DNA of 64,000 bases. Source: Dehalococcoidia bacterium. Lineage in GTDB: Bacteria; Chloroflexota; Dehalococcoidia; Lucifugimonadales; Australimonadaceae. The stretch is from NCBI GenBank assembly GCA_965201135.1, contig OZ241751.1:771663-835662 (forward strand), in the 5' to 3' direction. Of the stretch, positions 5,027-26,105 are shown in pieces (within the stretch, counting starts at the first letter, position 1; every line of letters begins with the position of its first letter). Position numbers and translations under genes: made by a program. The notes below the pieces were generated by a model, which saw nothing but the letters and a program-made list of their open reading frames with translations, searched no databases and was not told the DNA's origin.

Positions 5027-5521
5027 CTACGCCTTGCCGTTGGCGTCGTTGGCGCGGCGGGAGGGCGGAGGCTCCGTGAAGGGCTCGCCCTTGGCCTGAG
5101 CGGCCATCATCCGCTCGAGCCAGGCGTCCCATACCGCGTCCCGCACGACGCTCCCCTCTTGCCGACCCTCCTCACGGCCTTCGCGGCGCCCCTCGTTGAT
5201 GAGGCGCATTTTGCGCTCGTCCAGTTTCCTGCTCAGCAGCGTCGAGAGCATCACAACCTCCGTTATGCACAGGGACAGCCCCGCCGAGGCCACTGCCGCT
5301 GACGCCCAGCCCGCGACGACGTCCACGGCCCATTGTACCACGCCGCCTCCCGCGCCCGCGCCAAAGGTCTCGTGCCAGACGACGAGCGCGGAACTGCCGC
5401 TCATCAGCAGCAGGAAGAAGGTGAAATAGAGCCACCGCCAGCGCTCGTTGACGCTCCAGATGGACTCTCTGCGCTCGGCGGTTCCGCCGTTCTCCGGGAC
5501 GAGGACGTCGTCGGGTTGCAT
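5027..5521 (-). CDS. hypothetical two-TM membrane protein with an EGREEG-repeat C-terminal tail
   Basis: MQPDDVL start; hydrophobic WLYFTFFLLLM and WASAAVASAGLSLCI segments; EGRREGREEGRQEG tail. Confidence 0.7.
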   Translation of the reverse strand: MQPDDVLVPENGGTAERRESIWSVNERWRWLYFTFFLLLMSGSSALVVWHETFGAGAGGGVVQWAVDVVAGWASAAVASAGLSLCITEVVMLSTLLSRKLDERKMRLINEGRREGREEGRQEGSVVRDAVWDAWLERMMAAQAKGEPFTEPPPSRRANDANGKA

Positions 5522-5744
5522 CGGGCTCCCCTGCAAGTTTCGTTGAGCCGCGTCGAGCGGCGCAATGGCAGTGTCGCCAACGGCGTCCGATCCGCGCAAT
5601 GCCCGTTTGTCATACCCCGGCCCGTCCCCACCCCTCGCCGCCTGCCATCCGCCCCTCGCGCAGTCGCGGCGTCTGAGCGCACAATTGCTCGAGGCCGCCG
5701 TCGCCCCCTTGCGGCGGCCGTTCCTTGCGGAAGGAGAGCATCGC

Positions 5745-12080: not shown

Positions 12081-12157
12081 GGGCGGTTAGCTCAGTTGGT
12101 TAGAGCGTCGCGTTGACATCGCGGAGGCCAGAGGTTCGAGTCCTCTACCGCCCACCA
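12081..12157 (+). tRNA. tRNA-Val(GAC)
   Basis: Cloverleaf GGGCGGT..ACCGCCC-ACCA, anticodon loop TTGACAT, GGTTCGAGTCC T-arm. Confidence 0.97.
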
Positions 12158-12262: not shown

Positions 12263-12770
12263 CGTCGTTCCCGCGTAGGCGGGAATCTCGCCCCCATTCG
12301 GCGCGAAGCGCCCTCGGACCCCCCTCTCCCTATAAGGGGAGAGGACGCCGCGAACGCGGCGGGAGAGGGTACTGCGGTCGGGGCGCACACACGCCCCGTC
12401 ATTCCTACCCCCTCATACCGTCATTCCTGCGTAGGCAGGAATCCCCCATGTGAGGCGCGCAAGCGCCCAATTCCCCCTCTCCCTACATAGGGGAGAGGAC
12501 GCCGCGAACGCGGCGGGAGAGGGTACTGCGGTCGGGGCGCGTAGCGCACCGTCATTCCCCCCATGACCGTCATTCCGGCGTAGGCCGGAATCCATTCGGC
12601 GCCCCAGCGCCACGGACGGGGCGCCGCCCCGTCTCCAAGGATCCCCAGGGCCTCGTCATTCCCGCGAAAGCGGGAACCTACCCCATCGCGCCCGTCCGCA
12701 GTACCCGCGCCCTGACCGCGAAAGCGGGAACCTACCCTCATGACCGTCATTCCCGCGTAGGCGGGAATCT
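12263..12770. repeat. REP-like palindromic repeat cluster
   Basis: Same modules as the other clusters. Confidence 0.9.
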
Positions 12771-12789
12771 CGCCTCCCCCAGGCCAACC

Positions 12790-13145
12790 CCAGCGCTCAA
12801 ACGGCGCTCATTTGGCGCTAAAAAGCGCTCATTCAGCGCTCACGGAGCGCTCAAACGGCGCTCAAAAAGCGCTCATTCAGTGCTCATAAAGCGCTCACCC
12901 CCATTCATAGCCCCCTAACCCGCCTAAGGCGCCCCGCAAGCCTGCCGGAGAGCCCGACAACCCGCCCGATCTCCGCCGCGCCGCGAACTCCTTCCCCGCC
13001 TTCCCCAAGCCGCTCACGCTATTATGACACAACCCCATTGCGTTCCGCTACGCCCTCTGCTATCCTGACTCCAATGCGCGCTCCGCCCCGCTCATCCCGC
13101 GAGAGCGAATGAGCCGCAAATGAGCGCTTTTGAGCGCTAATTCAG
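12790..13145 (+). repeat. phased GCGCTCA array element, copy 1
   Basis: Ten GYGCT(C/A)A boxes at 10-11 bp spacing (12793-12897), promoter-like TTGCGT-17-TATCCT, then three inverted TGAGC boxes. Confidence 0.8.
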
Positions 13146-13213
13146 CGAAAACGCGCGGCGAGGCGGCGCAGCCGGAGGGAAGCCCAAGCGCGCCGGCGGA
13201 GGAAAACGAACCA

Positions 13214-14563
13214 ATGACCCAGCCCCACGAACTCACGCTCGCGCAGGCCGCAGGCGAAATCGCCGCCCGCCGCCTCTCCGCCGTCGAACTGACCGAGTCG
13301 CTGATCGCCCGCTCCGCCGACATGGAGCCCCGCGTCCTCGCCTGGACGACGCTCTTGCCGGAGCAGGCGCTCGCGGACGCCCAAGCGTTCGACGCCGCCC
13401 GCGCCGCGCCGCGAGGCCCTATCGCCGGCGTCCCCTACGGCGCGAAAGACATCTTCGACACCGCCGGCGTCCGCACCGCGGCGGGCTCCCGGATTTGGGC
13501 CGACCGCGTCCCCGACGCCGACGCCGCCCCCATCGCCATCGCCCGCGCCGCAGGCGCCATACTCCTCGGCAAACTCCACACCACCGAATTCGCCGACGGC
13601 GACCCCGCCCCCACCTACAACCCGTGGAGCGCCGAGCACACCCCCGGCGGCTCCAGCGCGGGCTCCGGCGCCGCAGTCGCCGCCCGCATGGCTCCCTGGG
13701 CGTTCGGGTCGCAAACCGTCGGCTCCGTGCTGCGCCCCGCCGCCTACAACGGCGTCGTCGGCCTCAAGCCCACCTTCGGGCGCGTCCCCCGGCTCGGCGT
13801 CATCCCTATGGCGGCCTCGTTCGACCACGTCGGCTTCCTCGCCCGCAACGTCGAGGACGCCGCGCTCCTCCTCAACGTGTTCGCCGTTCACGATCCCAAC
13901 GACCCGGACTCCGCCGACGCTCCGCCCGACGATTACGCCGCCGCCGTTCGCGGCGCGGACGCTCCGCCCCGACTCGGCCTCCTGCGCGGCTGGTTCTTCT
14001 CCGAAGCGAGCGCCGAAACCCGCCTTGCGATGGAGGACGCCGCCCAGCGGCTCGCCAACGCCGGCGCCGAGATCGAAGAGGTCGACTCGGGCGTGGACTT
14101 CGCCCGCGCCTACGCCGCCCACCGCGTGATGCAAGAGTCCGAAATGGCCGTCTGGCACGCGCCCCTCTACCTCGGCGCCGAAGACCGCTACGGCCCCAAG
14201 ATTCGCGTCTACCTCGACAACGGATTCGCCCACTCCGCCCGCGACTACGTGGCCGCCGCCGACTGCCGCCGCGAGGTCCGGCGCCTCGCCGCCCGCGCGA
14301 TGGAGCGCGTGGACGCGCTGCTTACGCCAACCGCGTCAGGCCCCGCCCCCCGCGACCGGACCCAGACCGGCGACACGCGGTTCCAAAGCCCGTGGAGTTT
14401 CACCGGCTTCCCCAGCGTCTCCGTGCCCATCGGCCTCTCCGCCGACGGCCTGCCTCTCGGCGCGCAACTCGCCTCCCCGCCCTTTCAAGAGGCGCGCCTC
14501 CTCCGCGCCGCCGCCTGGACCGAGCGCGCGCTAGGCGTAACGATCGCCCCTCCGCTCCCGTAG
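13214..14563 (+). CDS. amidase signature family protein
   Basis: GVPYGAKDIFDTAG, TPGGSSAGSGAAVAA, GSQTVGSVLRPAAYNGVVGLKPTFG. Confidence 0.95.
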   Translation: MTQPHELTLAQAAGEIAARRLSAVELTESLIARSADMEPRVLAWTTLLPEQALADAQAFDAARAAPRGPIAGVPYGAKDIFDTAGVRTAAGSRIWADRVPDADAAPIAIARAAGAILLGKLHTTEFADGDPAPTYNPWSAEHTPGGSSAGSGAAVAARMAPWAFGSQTVGSVLRPAAYNGVVGLKPTFGRVPRLGVIPMAASFDHVGFLARNVEDAALLLNVFAVHDPNDPDSADAPPDDYAAAVRGADAPPRLGLLRGWFFSEASAETRLAMEDAAQRLANAGAEIEEVDSGVDFARAYAAHRVMQESEMAVWHAPLYLGAEDRYGPKIRVYLDNGFAHSARDYVAAADCRREVRRLAARAMERVDALLTPTASGPAPRDRTQTGDTRFQSPWSFTGFPSVSVPIGLSADGLPLGAQLASPPFQEARLLRAAAWTERALGVTIAPPLP

Positions 14564-14660
14564 CGGACAGGAACCCGCCCCATGACCGTCATTCCCGCGC
14601 AGGCGGGAATCCCGCCTGCAATGTGAGGCGCGCAAGCGCCCAATTCCCCCTCTCCCTATA

Positions 14661-15866
14661 GAGTCCTTTGCATAACCCTCGCATCAGCGCGATCGGCAGT
14701 TCCGCGCCCCCGGAATCAGCCATTCAACCGCCCAAATCCCCCGATAACGGCCTCCACCTCCCCTGCTCGCCCCCAATTTAGGGGCTTCGCAGGGCCTCGT
14801 ACCCCCAACGGGCGCAATACGCCCCTACCCATGCACAGCGCAACCCTCTCTCAACCCGTCCGCGCGCCGCAGGTTGTACGCCAGCGCCTTGAACAACGCC
14901 TCCGCCTCGTTCCTCATTAGCCCCATGTACCGAACCCGCCAGTACCCATAGCTGCGCTTCAGCGTCCCAAACACCTGCTCCACCGGCGCCCGAACCTTCG
15001 ACAGCAGCCCGTTCCGCCGCCGCTGCCAATGCGGCAGCTCCGTCTGATGCTTATGCCCCCGATGCATGATCCGATCCTTCACGCCCTGCGCCCGCAGACG
15101 CTCACGACGCTCCTTCGACTCATACGCCTTGTCCGCGTACACCGCCTCTTCGTCCCCCATGATCAGCGCGTCCGCAACATCCGTGTCCGCAACGTTCGCA
15201 GGCGTGAACTCAACCCCGCGCACCAGCCCTGACCCCGCGTCCATCCCTATGTGCATCTTGTAGCCGAAATGCGACTTCTTCCCCTTCTTCGTCCACGCGG
15301 CGTCGGGGTCCGTTCCGCTCCGCGCTCCAGCCTCCGAATGCGGGCGCCGCGCCTGCGCCTCGATGATCGTCGCGTCGATCAGCGTTCCGCGCTTCACCAG
15401 CATGCCCTTCGCCTCCAACTGCCGATTCACTTCCGCGAACAGCGCCCGCGCCAGCCCCCGCTCCGTGATCTTCTTCCGAAACCGGCTGATCGTCGAGTGG
15501 TCGGGAACCGCGTCCGTCAGCGTGAGCTCCGCGAAGCGGCGGAACGACAGCCGGTCTTGGAGCGCCTCCTCCATGCCGACGTCGGAGGAGTCGTACCACT
15601 GCTGGAGGACGATGATCTTGACCATCGTGATCGGGCGGTAGGCGGGCCGTCCTTCGGGCGCGGCGTGGACATCGTCGAGTAGGGCTGCGACTTTGGGCCA
15701 ATCGATGAGGCGGTCGATGCGGTCGAGTCTGTCGTTGCGGCCTGCGTTGAAAGGGAGGAAGGCGTCGATGAAGGAGGGGTCGCTGGCTTCGAGATGCATA
15801 GCAGTCTCCTCGCGGTTGCGGGTTGCGGTCATTGTGCGCGATTGCGGAAGGTTATGCAAAGGTCTC
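14661..15866 (-). mobile_element. IS5-family insertion sequence, copy 1 (1206 bp)
   Basis: TIRs GAGTCCTTTGCATAACC / GGTTATGCAAAGGTCTC; 5-bp TSD CTATA (14656-60, 15867-71) inside a repeat hairpin. Confidence 0.95.
14825..15799 (-). CDS. IS5-family DDE transposase
   Basis: GRPAY, LQQWY..SD, PDHSTISRFR, IDATII, FGYKMH, ADKAY, RAPVEQVFG. Confidence 0.95.
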   Translation of the reverse strand: MHLEASDPSFIDAFLPFNAGRNDRLDRIDRLIDWPKVAALLDDVHAAPEGRPAYRPITMVKIIVLQQWYDSSDVGMEEALQDRLSFRRFAELTLTDAVPDHSTISRFRKKITERGLARALFAEVNRQLEAKGMLVKRGTLIDATIIEAQARRPHSEAGARSGTDPDAAWTKKGKKSHFGYKMHIGMDAGSGLVRGVEFTPANVADTDVADALIMGDEEAVYADKAYESKERRERLRAQGVKDRIMHRGHKHQTELPHWQRRRNGLLSKVRAPVEQVFGTLKRSYGYWRVRYMGLMRNEAEALFKALAYNLRRADGLREGCAVHG

Positions 15867-16326
15867 CTATAAGGGGAGAGGACGCCGCGGAAGCGGCGGG
15901 AGAGGGTACTGCGGTCGGGGGTATGGGTAGGTTCCCGCCTACGCGGGAATGACGCGGCCCCGGGGATCCATGGAGACGGGCTTGCGCACCGTCTATGGCG
16001 CTAGCGCGCCGAATGGATTCCTGCCTACGCAGGAATGACGGGGCGCGTCGCGCCCCGTCTCCTGATATTCCCATGCTCCGCGTCCATTCCCGCGAAAGCG
16101 GGAACCTACCTCCTACGCCGTCAATTCGCGCCCCCTATAACCGTCATTCCTGCCCTCTTGACCGTCATTCCCGCGTAGGCGGGAATCTCGTATCCCCCCT
16201 CTCCCTATAAGGGGAGAGGACGCCGCGAACGCGGCGGGAGAGGGTACTGCGGTCGGGGCGCATAGCGCCCCGTCTCCCCGTCTCCCCAAGCGCCTCGTCA
16301 TTCCCGCCCGCGAAAGCGGGAACCTA
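15867..16326. repeat. REP-like palindromic repeat cluster
   Basis: Same modules; abuts the mcrB stop codon. Confidence 0.9.
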
Positions 16327-16842
16327 CGCCTCCTCGCCCGCCTGCGGTTCCTCGTCCCCGCCGACGTCGCCGGACGGCGAGGCGCCGCCGCCCGCCGACT
16401 CGCCGCGCAACTTGGCCAGCGCGAACGCATCCGCAACGCCCTCAACGCCGAACAGCCGCTCCTTGATGTACGGCAGCACGCTGTGCTTCCAGATGCGCTC
16501 GACCTTCTCCTCGTCGAGCCCCGGCTGCATAAAGTAACTCGGACCGACGGCCGCCTCTGCCGCGCCACGATCCTTCAACAGGGCATTCGCCTTGTCCACT
16601 ACGTCCGCGACCCACTCCATCCCTCGCGTGTGCTCGCTCAGCCACTCGCGTAGCACGCCGTTCACAGGCGGCTTGTCCGGGTGAAACTCGACGAAGTGGA
16701 ACCGGCGGCGCAGCGCCAAGTCCACCAGAGCAATGGAGCGGTCGGCGGTGTTCATCGTGCCGATGACGTAGAGGTTGGGCGGCAGCGAGAACGGCCTGTC
16801 GGAGTACTGCAGCCGGATCCCATCTTCGCGGTACTCCAACAG

Positions 16843-18048
16843 GAGACCTTTGCATAACCTTCCGCAATCGCGCACAATGACCGCAACCCGCAACCGCGAG
16901 GAGACTGCTATGCATCTCGAAGCCAGCGACCCCTCCTTCATCGACGCCTTCCTCCCTTTCAACGCAGGCCGCAACGACAGACTCGACCGCATCGACCGCC
17001 TCATCGATTGGCCCAAAGTCGCAGCCCTACTCGACGATGTCCACGCCGCGCCCGAAGGACGGCCCGCCTACCGCCCGATCACGATGGTCAAGATCATCGT
17101 CCTCCAGCAGTGGTACGACTCCTCCGACGTCGGCATGGAGGAGGCGCTCCAAGACCGGCTGTCGTTCCGCCGCTTCGCGGAGCTCACGCTGACGGACGCG
17201 GTTCCCGACCACTCGACGATCAGCCGGTTTCGGAAGAAGATCACGGAGCGGGGGCTGGCGCGGGCGCTGTTCGCGGAAGTGAATCGGCAGTTGGAGGCGA
17301 AGGGCATGCTGGTGAAGCGCGGAACGCTGATCGACGCGACGATCATCGAGGCGCAGGCGCGGCGCCCGCATTCGGAGGCTGGAGCGCGGAGCGGAACGGA
17401 CCCCGACGCCGCGTGGACGAAGAAGGGGAAGAAGTCGCATTTCGGCTACAAGATGCACATAGGGATGGACGCGGGGTCAGGGCTGGTGCGCGGGGTTGAG
17501 TTCACGCCTGCGAACGTTGCGGACACGGATGTTGCGGACGCGCTGATCATGGGGGACGAAGAGGCGGTGTACGCGGACAAGGCGTATGAGTCGAAGGAGC
17601 GTCGTGAGCGTCTGCGGGCGCAGGGCGTGAAGGATCGGATCATGCATCGGGGGCATAAGCATCAGACGGAGCTGCCGCATTGGCAGCGGCGGCGGAACGG
17701 GCTGCTGTCGAAGGTTCGGGCGCCGGTGGAGCAGGTGTTTGGGACGCTGAAGCGCAGCTATGGGTACTGGCGGGTTCGGTACATGGGGCTAATGAGGAAC
17801 GAGGCGGAGGCGTTGTTCAAGGCGCTGGCGTACAACCTGCGGCGCGCGGACGGGTTGAGAGAGGGTTGCGCTGTGCATGGGTAGGGGCGTATTGCGCCCG
17901 TTGGGGGTACGAGGCCCTGCGAAGCCCCTAAATTGGGGGCGAGCAGGGGAGGTGGAGGCCGTTATCGGGGGATTTGGGCGGTTGAATGGCTGATTCCGGG
18001 GGCGCGGAACTGCCGATCGCGCTGATGCGAGGGTTATGCAAAGGACTC
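16843..18048 (+). mobile_element. IS5-family insertion sequence, copy 2 (1206 bp)
   Basis: Same TIRs; 5-bp TSD AACAG (16838-42, 18049-53); transposase translation identical to copy 1. Confidence 0.96.
16910..17884 (+). CDS. IS5-family DDE transposase
   Basis: Same as copy 1; GAGGAG RBS before ATG 16910. Confidence 0.95.
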   Translation: MHLEASDPSFIDAFLPFNAGRNDRLDRIDRLIDWPKVAALLDDVHAAPEGRPAYRPITMVKIIVLQQWYDSSDVGMEEALQDRLSFRRFAELTLTDAVPDHSTISRFRKKITERGLARALFAEVNRQLEAKGMLVKRGTLIDATIIEAQARRPHSEAGARSGTDPDAAWTKKGKKSHFGYKMHIGMDAGSGLVRGVEFTPANVADTDVADALIMGDEEAVYADKAYESKERRERLRAQGVKDRIMHRGHKHQTELPHWQRRRNGLLSKVRAPVEQVFGTLKRSYGYWRVRYMGLMRNEAEALFKALAYNLRRADGLREGCAVHG

Positions 18049-19049
18049 AACAGGTAGTAGAGTTCGCCGAAGACCTTGCCGAGGTTGCCGCGGTTGATCT
18101 CGTCTATGACCAAGAAATGGTCGGCGTCCGGCTCCTCTTCGGCGCGCTTGGCGGCCTGCAGCAACGGCCCATCCTTGAGTTCGTAGCCCAACTGCCCGTC
18201 GTCAAGCGTAGGGCGGTAGCCCTGCACGAAATCCTCGTAGGCGTAGGACGGATGGAACTGCACGAGCGTCACGCGATTCCCGTCGCCGCCCGCGAGATGC
18301 ATGGCGAGGCGCTTCGCCACGTAGGTCTTGCCCGTGCCGGGCGGGCCGTAGAAGATGACCTGCTTCTTGTCCTCGAGGAGGCTCTCAATATCGCGAAGGA
18401 ACGAGGCGTCCTCAAAGCAGAGGTCGGCGGCGAGGGACTCGAGATCGCGTGTCGGCGTAGGCTCGCCGCTCCCGGAGACAAGGAGCACTGTGGCCTGTTG
18501 GTACATGGTACGCCGCCACTCTTCGGGCAGAGTCGCCCGCTGGATGGGGTCCGAACGCCATTCGACGCGGCGTCGGTGGTCGTAAGGGTCGTCGTGAACC
18601 GGTTGGAAGAAATAGTCAGAGACGACCCTTCCGACGTAGATTCGGCTAGCGTCGCGGGCAGGAGTTAGCAACCAGTCACCCTGGCGGATGTCGTGTATGA
18701 ATCGGTAGATGGACCCTGTCCAACTGCCAATGCTGGCATTCGACTTGTCAGGATGGGCATCCTTCAAGCGGTCTCGGAGGTCGCCAAAGTCGACTCCGGA
18801 GAGGTCCTGGCCGTCGAGCCAACCCAAGCCCGCGTAGCCGCCCTGAACGAAATCTTGCGTGTACAGGCCGTATTCCGCCCGCACGCAGAAGACTCTGCCC
18901 ATCGTCGAGAAGTCGGGGACGCTTTCCAGTTGGACGACCATCATCTATCTCCATCCGAGTCTTTGGCTGCGCTGCCGGGGCGCATAATGCCATAGCCGAC
19001 CCTTGCGCGTCAACCTCGCGCTGGCGGGTCGGGCGGGCGGGGTAGGTTT

Positions 19050-20083
19050 ACTGGATTCCCAAACGAAGCGCAACACCAGAGTAAGGTGGCGCCATGGGAT
19101 ACAGCCATATCGGGATCGAAGAGCGGTGTGAGATTGCCCGCCTACTCAAAGCGGGGACCGCGGTCAGGCAAATCGCTGCAAGTCTGGATCGCTCGCCATC
19201 GGCAATCTCTCGCGAGATCAACCGCAACCGGTTGAGCTCAGGCGAGTACAGGCCGGTGCAGGCGAACGAGCGGGCGCAGGCGCGGCGGTGGCGCGGGCCG
19301 CGCCTCGACCGCGACGACTTGCTGCGGGAGGCCGTGCTTTGGCGGCTCGCGTGGGGCGCGTCGCCTGAGCAAGTCGCCGGGCGCTTGGCGTTGGAGATGG
19401 GCAGGCCGGTGATTTCGGACGAGACGATCTACCGGTTCATCTACGGCCAGGTGAAGAGGAAGAAGGACTACGGCTGGCGGCATTACCTGCCGCAGGCGAA
19501 GGCGAAGAGGGGCCGGCGCTCCCGCAAGGGGCGCAGTTCCGCCGTGTTCATCCGTGAGCGCCGCCCGCTGGCGGAGCGGCCTCCGGAGGCCGCCGGCCGG
19601 GTCGAGTTCGGCCACTGGGAGGCGGACACGATGCTGTTCGGCGTTCGGAAGCAGGCGCTGCTGATCCTGCACGAGCGCGCGTCGCGGCTGTCGCTCGTGT
19701 TGCGGCCTGAGAGCAAGGGGGCGGAGCCTGTCGCGCAAGCGATGGTGGCGACGCTGGGGGCTCTGCCGTTGGAGATGCGGCGGAGCGTGACGTTCGACAA
19801 CGGGACGGAGTTTGCGCGGCATTACGAGTTGCACGCGATAGGGACGGAGACGTTCTTCTGCGACGTGAGGTCGCCATGGCAGAAAGGGGGAGTGGAGAAC
19901 GCGATAGGCCGGCTGCGGCGGGAGTTGCCTCGGAAGACGGACTTGGACGGGGTGTCGGACGAGGAGTTGACGCTGTGCGCGTTGCGCTCCAACAACACGC
20001 CGCGCGCGGCGCTGGGCTACCGGACGCCGGTTGAGGTATTCTGGAACGAACAGCAGGTGTTGCGCTTCGAATGTGGATCCACA
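19050..20083 (+). mobile_element. IS30-family insertion sequence
   Basis: Imperfect ~27-bp IRs sharing CGAAGCGCAACACC (left ends 19077, right starts 20056); flanks rejoin to a GGTAGGTT..CCGCTTTCGCGGGAATGAC repeat. Confidence 0.88.
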
Positions 20084-20104
20084 TTTCCGCTTTCGCGGGA
20101 ATGA
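19094..20104 (+). CDS. IS30-family transposase
   Basis: HTH IAASLDRSPSAISREINRN, ETIYRFIY, GHWEADT, TFDNGTEF, SPWQKGGVENAIGRLR. Confidence 0.95.
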   Translation: MGYSHIGIEERCEIARLLKAGTAVRQIAASLDRSPSAISREINRNRLSSGEYRPVQANERAQARRWRGPRLDRDDLLREAVLWRLAWGASPEQVAGRLALEMGRPVISDETIYRFIYGQVKRKKDYGWRHYLPQAKAKRGRRSRKGRSSAVFIRERRPLAERPPEAAGRVEFGHWEADTMLFGVRKQALLILHERASRLSLVLRPESKGAEPVAQAMVATLGALPLEMRRSVTFDNGTEFARHYELHAIGTETFFCDVRSPWQKGGVENAIGRLRRELPRKTDLDGVSDEELTLCALRSNNTPRAALGYRTPVEVFWNEQQVLRFECGSTFPLSRE

Positions 20105-20590
20105 CGGGGCGCATGGGGGATTGTGGAGACGGGGCGCGTTGCGCCCCGTCCGCAGTACCCTCTCCCGCCGCGTTCGCGGCGTCCTCTCCCCTTATAGGGA
20201 GAGGGGGAATGCCCCCTGTGAGAGGGGATATGACGGCGTTGCGTTGTGTCATTGATATGACTATACGCTTAGGCGGCGCGAATTGCAAGGAGGCGCTGTC
20301 ATATTGGGGACGGTTGGAGAGGGGGAGGGGTAGGTTCCCGCTTTCGGGCGAGGCGCCGGGGGACGGGCGCAGCCCCGGTCTCCCCTTATTTCCCGGGGCC
20401 GCGTCATTCCCGCGAAAGCGGGAACCTACCCCCTTGCGGCGGGAGAGGGTACTGCGGACGGGGCGCGTGGCGTTCGTCATTCCTGCGTAGGCCGGAATCC
20501 ATTCGACGCCATAGCGCCACAGACGGGGCGCAACGCGCCCCGTCTCCAAGTATCCCCGGGCCCCTCATTCCCGCGAAAGCGGGAACCTAC
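20084..20590. repeat. REP-like palindromic repeat cluster with an AT-richer spacer
   Basis: Same modules. Confidence 0.85.
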
Positions 20591-20611
20591 TGGGCCGCGC
20601 CGCGCCTGACC

Positions 20612-20962
20612 CCAGCGCTCAAACGGCGCTCATTTGGCGCTAAAAAGTGCTCAAACGGTGCTCATGCAGTGCTCAAACGGCGCTCAAAAAGCGCTCATTC
20701 GGCGCTCAAAAAGTGCTCACTGCCCCGGCGCGCCCTCCCAAGCCCCCGGCCGCCCGCCGCGCCCTTGAATTCCCATTGCCCCCGACTCCGCAAACGGCGA
20801 TCCGGCCCCCGCCACGCGCTCCTAACCCGCGCCTATGCAATGATATGACAGAAGCCTGTTGCGCACAATCGTCCGCCCTGCTACGATAGACCGACGTCAA
20901 GGGCGCGAACCCCCGCGCCGCAGGAGCGAATGAGCGCTTTTGAGCGCTTTGAGCCAATTTTC
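20612..20962 (+). repeat. phased GCGCTCA array element, copy 2
   Basis: Ten boxes at 20615-20719, TTGCGC-17-TACGAT, then three inverted TGAGC boxes. Confidence 0.8.
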
Positions 20963-21059: not shown

Positions 21060-22160
21060 ATGGCCACGTTCGACATCATGGTTCTGCCCGGCGACGGCGT
21101 CGGGCCCGAGGTCACGCAGGCGGCGCAGCGCGTCCTCGACGCCGTCGCGGCGCGCGGAGGGCATTCCTTCCGCTACAAAACGGACGTCGTAGGCGGCGGC
21201 GCGATAGACGCCTACGGCGAGCCCCTGCGCGACGAGACCGTCCGCGCCGCGAGGCAGGCCGACGCCGTCCTCTTCGGCGCCGTCGGCGGGCCGAAGTGGG
21301 ACAACGCCCCCGTCCGCCCCGAAGCCGCCATCCTCGGCCTCCGCAAAGCGCTCGGCCTCTACGCCAACATCCGCCCCGTCAAAGTCTTCCCCGGCATGGA
21401 GGGCGCCAGCCCCCTCAAGAACGACCTCGTTCGCGGCGCGGATATGGTCATCATCCGCGAACTCACCGGCGGCCTCTACTACGCGACGCCCAAGAAGCGC
21501 TGGGAGACGAAGGCCGGGCGCAAAGGCGTGGACACGCTCCGCTACGCGGAGAAGGAGATCGAGCGCATCCTCCGCGTCGGATTCCAACTCGCCCGCTCGC
21601 GGCGCCGCAAACTCACCTCCGTCGACAAGGCGAACGTTCTGCAGTCCTCCCGCCTCTGGCGCGACATAGCCAACGAAGTCGCGCGCGACTACCCCGACGT
21701 CGAGTTGGAGCATCAGTTGGTGGACTCCTGCGCGATGCTGCTCGTCACGCGCCCGACGAGTTTCGACGTGATGGTGATGGAGAATATGTTCGGCGACATC
21801 ATCTCCGACGAGGCCGCCGTGCTCTCCGCGTCGCTCGGCATGCTGCCCTCCGCGAGCCTCGCCGGGCTGCCCGGCGAAGACGCGCGCGGCAAGCCCCGCA
21901 AAACGCGCGGCCTCTACGAGCCCAGCCACGGCAGCGCCCCCGACATCGCCGGACAGCGCAAGGCCAACCCCGTCGGCTCCATCCTCAGCGCGGCCTTTAT
22001 GCTGGAGTACTCGTTCGGCCTCGCCGACGAGGCCGCCGCCGTCAACGCCGCCGTCGAGCGCGCGCTGAACGACGGCCACCGCACCGCCGACCTCGTCCCT
22101 CCCGGCGCGGAGTTCTCCACGACGGAGCACATCACCGACATCATCATCGAGCGGCTGTAG
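21060..22160 (+). CDS. leuB: 3-isopropylmalate dehydrogenase
   Basis: LPGDGVGPEV, GAVGGPKWD, RELTGGLYY, SVDKANVL, NMFGDIISDE, LYEPSHGSAPDIAG. Confidence 0.97.
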   Translation: MATFDIMVLPGDGVGPEVTQAAQRVLDAVAARGGHSFRYKTDVVGGGAIDAYGEPLRDETVRAARQADAVLFGAVGGPKWDNAPVRPEAAILGLRKALGLYANIRPVKVFPGMEGASPLKNDLVRGADMVIIRELTGGLYYATPKKRWETKAGRKGVDTLRYAEKEIERILRVGFQLARSRRRKLTSVDKANVLQSSRLWRDIANEVARDYPDVELEHQLVDSCAMLLVTRPTSFDVMVMENMFGDIISDEAAVLSASLGMLPSASLAGLPGEDARGKPRKTRGLYEPSHGSAPDIAGQRKANPVGSILSAAFMLEYSFGLADEAAAVNAAVERALNDGHRTADLVPPGAEFSTTEHITDIIIERL

Positions 22161-25753: not shown

Positions 25754-26105
25754 CCTTGGGGGATAGGATAGCAGATTGCGGGGCGCGGCGCCATCCCCCT
25801 GCGCGATGAAAGTTGGGCGGGGAGGCAAGAGAGGGCTCCGCTTGCGCGGGCAAGCGTCGAAGGTCCCTTCCCTTTAAGGGTGGCATCATTTGGCATCATT
25901 TTGACTCATTTACTCCTGCGCTCCGGGGGCGGATGAGGCCAATTCGGGGCCGAAACGGGGCGTTTAGGGCCGATTTGGGGCGAAATGAGGCCAGATGGAG
26001 CCGCCGACAAGGGGCGTCTGGTCCGCAGCGGGGGCACTGAGCGCGAGGATCATAGGGACAGCTTAGGAGAAAAGGGGCGGACGGCGCAAGGGGGAGTTGT
26101 CTCAG

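Follow-up and report, generated by a model that had tools for sequence, protein, structure and literature searches.

Gene-less copies of a small-terminase leader with helically phased boxes, dispersed over the genome of a Dehalococcoidia bacterium

The stretch of DNA analyzed here (the window: 64,000 nt, positions 771,663 to 835,662 of the forward strand of contig OZ241751.1, assembly GCA_965201135.1, Dehalococcoidia bacterium) contains two copies of an element in which ten helically phased heptamer boxes are followed by a promoter-like site and three inverted boxes. The elements almost certainly derive from the leader of terS, a gene whose product is, judging from its profile, its fold and a viral homolog beside the genes for the large terminase subunit (TerL) and the portal, a small terminase subunit (TerS). 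TerS probably binds the boxes. The reading that we prefer, though tentatively, is that with these likely docking sites the gene-less leader copies may serve mainly as packaging-start (pac)-like sites of a head system that resembles a gene transfer agent (GTA) and is kept by the host. A description of such a system was not found in the literature (open-access texts without supplements were searched).

A dispersed family with a conserved geometry

The genome under study (G000; other G-numbers denote the genomes of relatives and L-numbers denote loci) is a single contig of 2.94 Mb with 68% GC. It contains 28 clusters of at least four phased boxes, versus none in an order-4 Markov control genome; one of the 28 is an unrelated 21-bp repeat, which leaves 27 arrays. 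The promoter core is found 26 times (25 times by pattern, plus the second copy in the window), and 25 cores are joined to an array. A preliminary description of the window had taken the element to occur twice; in fact G000 holds 25 complete copies, two arrays without a core and one core without an array. Exactly ten boxes are present in 17 of the 25 array-joined copies. Among 40 relatives the array was encountered in G002 only.

When 75 units from 15 copies were aligned in a fixed 11-bp register, six box columns were 97-100% conserved and the C/T column 79%, whereas the spacer columns reached 40-68%. The boxes are thus far better conserved than the spacers, which removes the doubt voiced beforehand that the two might not differ in this respect. 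The spacers are drawn from a small, shuffled vocabulary. In addition, A/T is phased at unit positions 8-9 (86% and 83% of 180 units) in this GC-rich genome.

The distances within the element are equally telling. From the last box to the TATGACA core they amount to 131-133 bp in 20 of the 25 copies, 122 bp in three, and 142 and 85 bp in one copy each. The first inverted downstream box follows at 86-89 bp from the core in 20 of the 26 cases, at 98 bp in three and at 108-109 bp in three. The copies in G002 have 145 and 174 bp upstream and 107-108 bp downstream. For 19 copies with a distance of 131-133 bp, the DNA between array and core shares no more than 68% identity, and pairwise alignments have a median of six gaps. 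Identity is thus low and gaps are frequent, yet the distances are kept; the length changes are mostly whole helical turns, which would point to protein binding on one face of the DNA at both clusters. The earlier proposal of a helically phased protein-binding array is therefore upheld: two opposed clusters surround a portable promoter, and the conserved geometry fits looping or wrapping.

The alternative identities put forward at that time, an iteron array, a centromere or a transposon end, are not sustained, as terminal inverted repeats and target-site duplications are lacking and the neighbours are unrelated host genes. More specifically, a miniature inverted-repeat transposable element or transposon end was rejected after the flanks of 25 copies had been read by eye for both features, and an iteron origin or plasmid centromere because there are 26 loci and no rep or par gene among the 22 downstream genes scanned (the scan covered downstream genes). 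A CRISPR-like or coding repeat is at odds with repeats of 7 nt, 4-nt spacers from a limited repertoire and a period not divisible by three. CIRCE and lac-type operators were dropped for want of a suitably spaced inverted pair. The LexA box has a motif of the type GAAC-N4-GTTC; a cassette under SOS control was set aside, as such a box occurs within 300 bp in none of the 26 copies.

A second family of orphan terS leaders, from another terS paralog, has 53 copies in G000. One of these lies in the window (about 25870-26100, minus strand, anchor 25917) and has TG(G/A)NGC(A/C) boxes in two opposed arms. Together, both families provide about 79 sites with a mean gap of 37 kb; a test for even spacing of these 79 sites fell short of significance (P 0.07). 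The GC skew of G000 revealed no clear origin.

The master copy encodes a TerS-like protein

The preliminary description had advised a search for copies that carry an open reading frame, and one such copy was indeed found. In this master copy (G000 C1:2893746-2892654, minus strand) the leader runs into an intact gene for a protein of 140 aa with a helix-turn-helix (HTH). Its ATG lies inside the inverted boxes, which cover the ribosome site and the start codon. In the copy at 401.4 kb the gene start is frameshifted, and the remaining copies end just past the boxes. At the master copy terS is overlapped and followed by a second gene, orf2 (115 aa), and the same pair is present in G002. All 22 genomes of the genus have between one and eight matches to the TerS-like protein, in nearly all cases followed by orf2.

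The best PHROG match of the TerS-like protein is a terminase small subunit (E 1.8e-6), and seven of the 15 matches are TerS families. The predicted model (predicted local distance difference test score 84) consists of an HTH and two long helices. Its top structural match among 48,161 chains was phBC6A51 (PDB 2ao9; Z 7.0, root-mean-square deviation (rmsd) 2.6), which PMC11331095 lists as a small terminase. The likeness concerns the N-terminal HTH plus helix; the two proteins differ in that identity is only 21% over the 62 aligned residues and that the partner orf2 has no match. The DNA-binding domain of SF6 G1P aligned with Z 5.6 and rmsd 1.9 over 51 residues. A search of BFVD gave nine rows named terminase small subunit among the best 50. 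The match to PF13022 is weak (E 0.003, under the cut-off), and the TerS profile found nothing under E 0.02 among the sequences of solved structures. A viral TerS homolog is located directly 5' of TerL and a portal-like gene.

The product of orf2 is small and all-helical (L024:2655-3002, minus strand), and its gene is coupled to terS across the order. The invariant residues C14, C72, H90, C102 and C104, i.e. four Cys and one His, make it likely that the protein binds a metal. It has no Pfam or PHROG match, no usable Atlas match and no viral relative; a fold search gave no match either (best Z 6.1, uninformative), and the names on its relatives point to Chloroflexota. A toxin-antitoxin reading of the terS-orf2 pair was rejected, orf2 being without family, fold or viral match.

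Box and recognition helix vary together

The TerS paralogs share the promoter core, mostly with 10-bp-phased boxes at the gene start, and each clade has its own 7-mer. A chain of boxes was called automatically at 47 of 53 loci. Where an inverted array is present it has the same box as the gene start, i.e. both clusters change with the paralog. For instance, a sister clade has TGATAGC-type arrays with the same downstream offsets of 87/97, G008 has an eight-box TGTCTCA array, and G056, of another family, has nine GTGTCGC boxes.

For 34 TerS lineages, with boxes read by hand (omitted were loci nearly identical to others, those that had no clear chain, and the ambiguous L162 and L170), the similarity of the boxes was correlated with that of four residues of the recognition helix. 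The correlation coefficient was 0.52, and the partial coefficient, given the rest of the protein, was likewise 0.52; none of 2000 random sets of four columns reached this correlation, and over 367 distant pairs r was 0.53. A C at box position 6 is found in 25 of 25 lineages with a basic helix residue 2, versus 2 of 9 without one. A-type arrays co-occur with a close TerS in two of the 22 genomes, G000 and G002. The code is, however, not deterministic. G008 has 11 TGTCTCA arrays, three of them at matching terS genes. The sites in G006, 20 in number (e.g. C1:74942), are dispersed GTCTCA triplets with a 10-bp period.

Phage-head genes and a shared promoter class

The head genes of G000 are dispersed between host genes. 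They comprise 13 TerL copies, which form two subfamilies, and a single copy each of a portal gene, a protease-orf-capsid operon and an operon with the head-tail adaptor. The Walker A motif and the nuclease aspartates are kept in all 13 TerL copies, and the synonymous and non-synonymous codon differences relate as 808:80 and 2180:853. In subfamily 1, TE replaces DE in Walker B throughout the genus. The 13 TerL genes are solitary (e.g. L103:1635-3458, minus strand), each lying between clusters of repetitive extragenic palindromic (REP) sequences; five of them are about 92-96% identical. REP-derived sequence is translated in the TerL tails in G000, and the whole is possibly a self-spreading unit. 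Beside one TerL copy there are tandem gene pairs that look like nucleotidyltransferase/HEPN pairs in translation (L104:597-3079).

The promoter motif TGACA-N8-TTGC occurs 61 times in G000, against 1-6 times at other spacings, and is enriched in five relatives (10-43 versus 1-9 in the control). It heads the portal, protease-capsid, adaptor and terS genes as well as the orphan leaders, and also five of the 13 TerL genes, namely those of subfamily 1 (in one case across an insertion sequence). An orphan TerL-subfamily-1 promoter of this type in the window (20262-20305, minus strand) faces an IS30-like transposase gene (19094-20104) and not TerL. The same class is found before a membrane-protein family of about 12 copies with a member in the window (5027-5612, minus strand), a candidate lysis or particle-related gene of which a paralog had no PHROG match. 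It is found, too, before eight coiled-coil genes that start with MTMQAVEM (G000 C1:387909, 504750, 720420, 917682, 918553, 1069149, 1086685 and 2934755); these had only a weak tape-measure match in PHROG (1e-4), probably a coiled-coil effect.

TerS, orf2 and TerL are present in all 22 genomes of the genus. The capsid gene is present in 21 of these, at 74-91% identity and as a single copy in nearly all. Across the order it was found in 38 of 121 genomes and TerS in 24, 18 of which have the capsid gene, kin not being independent in these counts. TerS and TerL lie within 5 kb of each other in 20 pairs in 17 of 21 relatives (counted by eye from lists, and also seen directly). G143 has TerL, portal, protease, capsid and adaptor in one cluster, a tail terminator is present in G076 and G087, and a tail tube in G076.

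The two copies in the window

The layout in the preliminary description was confirmed almost throughout. Both copies have ten boxes (starts 12793-12891 and 20615-20713) with the same steps: 11, 11 and 10 bp followed by six of 11 bp. TATGACA is present downstream, at 13023 and 20844, at 131-132 bp from the start of the last box; the distance of about 140 bp given before was slightly long. The site TTGCG(T/C)-17 nt-TA(TCC/CGA)T, with TG before the -10, was located at 13038-13066 and 20859-20887, and the three TGAGC boxes at 13110 (degenerate), 13121 and 13131, and at 20931, 20941 and 20950. REP-type clusters were seen upstream, and the genes downstream are unrelated to each other (Amidase PF01425 and Iso_dh PF00180). 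The features are as follows:

12788..13147, plus strand: copy 1, duplicate of the terS leader without the gene, composed of array, spacer, promoter and gene-start boxes
12793..12897, plus strand: copy 1, ten phased GYGCT(C/A)A boxes, 11-bp period with a single 10-bp step; putative TerS wrapping array
13023..13029, plus strand: copy 1, TATGACA, with TGACA 8 nt 5' of the -35; putative activator or class-specific element common to the phage-head promoters
13038..13066, plus strand: copy 1, promoter-like TTGCGT-17-TATCCT with extended TG (predicted; under the threshold of the consensus scan)
13110..13137, plus strand: copy 1, three inverted TGAGC(GC) boxes in steps of 10-11 bp; their equivalents in the master copy contain the terS start codon
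12249..12780, no strand: REP-type hairpin cluster 5' of copy 1; context, outside the conserved unit
13214..14563, plus strand: amidase gene (Amidase PF01425); a separate -10 was not found between the gene and copy 1
20610..20960, plus strand: copy 2, gene-less duplicate of the terS leader
20615..20719, plus strand: copy 2, ten phased boxes
20844..20887, plus strand: copy 2, TATGACA plus TTGCGC-17-TACGAT promoter-like site
20931..20956, plus strand: copy 2, three inverted TGAGC boxes in steps of 10 and 9 bp
20388..20598, no strand: REP-type hairpin cluster 5' of copy 2; context
21060..22160, plus strand: leuB-type dehydrogenase gene (Iso_dh PF00180), with its own promoter-like site 3' of copy 2, matching that of two relatives

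Of the 12 positions of the E. coli consensus, the promoter of the element matches only 7-8, and a sigma-70 and terminator consensus scan of 12700-13250 gave no match. The element is absent before the leuB orthologs of G002, G003, G006, G008 and G019 and equally before the amidase orthologs of these five genomes, so that both copies in the window are lineage-specific insertions. The same promoter type natively precedes the amidase gene in two relatives. The amidase gene appears to depend on the promoter of the element; leuB has a promoter-like site of its own. The sequencing runs that contain the sequence include sponge metagenomes; no RNA run was listed among them, which has no bearing on expression. 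Contigs of four runs reach over the element but none spans the locus, and in those of the three other sponge or marine runs, which also include the amidase gene, the differences are mainly in the spacer.

Packaging starts and known systems

In the proposed mechanism a TerS ring of about 8-12 subunits would wrap the array of roughly 105 bp with one HTH per DNA turn. By also contacting the inverted boxes at the promoter and the start codon, the ring might keep its own gene repressed; TerL, recruited by the ring, would cut the neighbouring chromosome and load it into capsids. The copies have likely spread via recombination in REP-type mosaics, and may have been retained chiefly where a host gene lies downstream of their promoter. 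Wrapping by a TerS ring would fit the pac site of SPP1, the pac clusters of P1 and the known rings of 8-12 subunits (PMC11331095).

Those features of a pac-type system that can be read from sequence and predicted structure are present: a cognate TerS (with N-terminal HTH, helical oligomerization domain and terminase context), repeats that span the promoter and the terS start, and a catalytically intact TerL with portal and capsid genes. PMC4737164 describes the SPP1 pac as three sets of repeats that span promoters and the terS start, with the HTHs of the ring one DNA turn apart. The pac of the Bacillus phages SPP1/SF6 and its G1P thus share with the present system short direct repeats over the terS promoter and start, the HTH fold and an extent of about 100 bp with one HTH per turn. 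Here, in contrast, the sites are on a host chromosome, with 26 gene-less copies, strict phasing and a pair of opposed clusters. Box and recognition helix also change together here; non-specific binding is described for the SF6 domain. In phage P1 the HEX4 and HEX3 clusters lie inside pacA (PMC10028697); as here, two clusters of short repeats flank a central stretch and overlap the 5' end of the small-subunit gene. The boxes in G000 differ in having no GATC, in forming inverted clusters (about 10 + 3) around a promoter and in not being on a phage genome.

A GTA-type feature is that the head genes are conserved and vertically kept among host genes. In this respect the system resembles the GTA of Rhodobacter capsulatus (RcGTA), of which the vertically kept, near single-copy head genes lie among host genes at several loci. 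According to PMC6854486, GTAs had no known pac equivalent or discrete packaging start, and the RcGTA TerS is without HTH. Here, however, TerS keeps its HTH, unlike the RcGTA type with its HTH-less TerS and random packaging, and has 1-8 paralogs with different boxes. TerL has up to 13 copies, and the queries used brought up no tail genes in G000. About ten 11-bp units near a promoter are also found in plasmid R1 parC and iteron arrays. The present arrays differ from these in being dispersed over a chromosome and derived from a terS leader, with no par or rep among the downstream neighbours scanned.

A bolder proposal, conceivable though doubtful, is that sponge-associated Dehalococcoidia have a domesticated head system whose packaging, in contrast to that of known GTAs, is non-random. 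A panel of sequence-specific TerS proteins, each with a 7-bp box that can be read from its helix, and dozens of cognate pac cassettes seeded over the chromosome (about 79 in G000, one per 37 kb) would select the host DNA to be packaged, and the cassettes would double as promoters.

Alternative explanations

A number of observations weigh against the copies being packaging starts. The structural Z scores are modest (below 8), the SF6 HTH, when isolated, lacks specificity in its binding to pac DNA (PMC4737164), and no phased boxes precede the start of the viral homolog L102. The TerS of the second family is present in G000 only in frameshifted or leaderless form, no TerS adjoins a TerL in G000, and genes for tail terminator, tube, tape measure and head closure were not found there with the queries used. 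As to the covariation, the boxes were read by hand, the four helix columns were picked after inspection of the data, and the tree is compatible with a single origin of the non-basic state. A prediction for the held-out L134 failed (TGAGACA was expected, TGA(A/G)GCC-type boxes were observed), and the 20 GTCTCA arrays of G006 have no matching TerS among the four of its five loci examined. Finally, 24 of the 26 copies face a co-oriented host gene, versus 138 of 224 polar REP clusters, which favours use as a promoter.

This orientation, shared by 43 of the 53 copies of the second family, is an argument for the main rival view, in which the TerS-like protein is a transcription regulator and the copies are portable promoter-operators under its control by repression or looping; orf2 might then sense metals or redox state, and no packaging would start at the copies. 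The boxes that cover the cognate gene's ribosome site and start codon, the amidase gene without a separate -10 after the element, the invariant Cys and His residues of orf2 and the missing tail genes would all suit such a regulator. We nevertheless consider it less likely than packaging starts. The downstream genes have no common pathway (esterase, alkyltransferase, biotin carboxylase, thiE, primase, acpS, DNA methylase, inositol-phosphate synthase, Rrf2 and others), 11 of the 26 copies are followed by another -10-like hexamer before the next gene, and the element is absent before leuB and amidase in all five relatives. Moreover, this view does not account for TerL and capsid genes that are conserved and have the same class of promoter. 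The two functions, pac-like start and portable operator, can both hold.

It is quite improbable that the copies are selfish or near-neutral modules of REP mosaics, left by an old terS leader and homogenized by gene conversion, with only incidental binding. G000 does multiply many REP-flanked units (13 TerL copies, the coiled-coil and membrane-protein families), the shuffled spacer vocabulary would fit, and some orphan arrays have no evident cognate TerS. Moreover, GYGCTCA minisatellites with an 11-bp period are common elsewhere: a pattern scan of metagenomes gave 117 loci, mostly homogeneous, with a TerS-like gene within 1.2 kb at none of them. Against this reading, the spacer keeps its length in whole helical turns although its sequence diverges by about 32% and has indels that compensate each other, the boxes are much better conserved than the spacers, and the differences in the other sponge-derived strains are mostly within the spacer. 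Still less probable is a role of the TerS-like ring as a nucleoid organizer, with the roughly 79 sites as structural anchors for wrapping or bridging. The sites of Noc, SlmA and MatP are precedents for nucleoid anchors, and the number of sites, their mean gap and the phased A/T would agree with it; the spacing no more even than random, the lineage-specific site families and the invariable inclusion of a promoter would not.

If the copies do act as packaging starts, they would constitute a GTA-like system with defined starts, something not yet shown according to PMC6854486; targeting of chromosomal packaging starts is unreported for GTAs in the literature found. The natural pairs of TerS and box, with about ten boxes at one per turn, would then lend themselves to tests of the debated wrapping of DNA around the small-terminase ring, and the covariation of helix and box offers a ready test of HTH specificity. 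If instead the regulator view is true, a phage packaging protein and its site have become a mobile promoter-operator, by which housekeeping genes are rewired in one lineage after another.

Other observations

An Rfam search gave no family above the gathering score for the element; its sole match was a tRNA at 12081-12154. In two near-identical segments, at G000 C1:1970161 and 2072059, the element is found together with the truncated start of an amidase gene and with an aminotransferase gene; they represent a recent duplication related to copy 1 of the window. Between the two copies, at 14652-18057, two inverted IS5-type insertion sequences (1217 bp, 100% complementary) surround a 972-bp segment within an McrB-like gene, which looks like a composite or inversion event.

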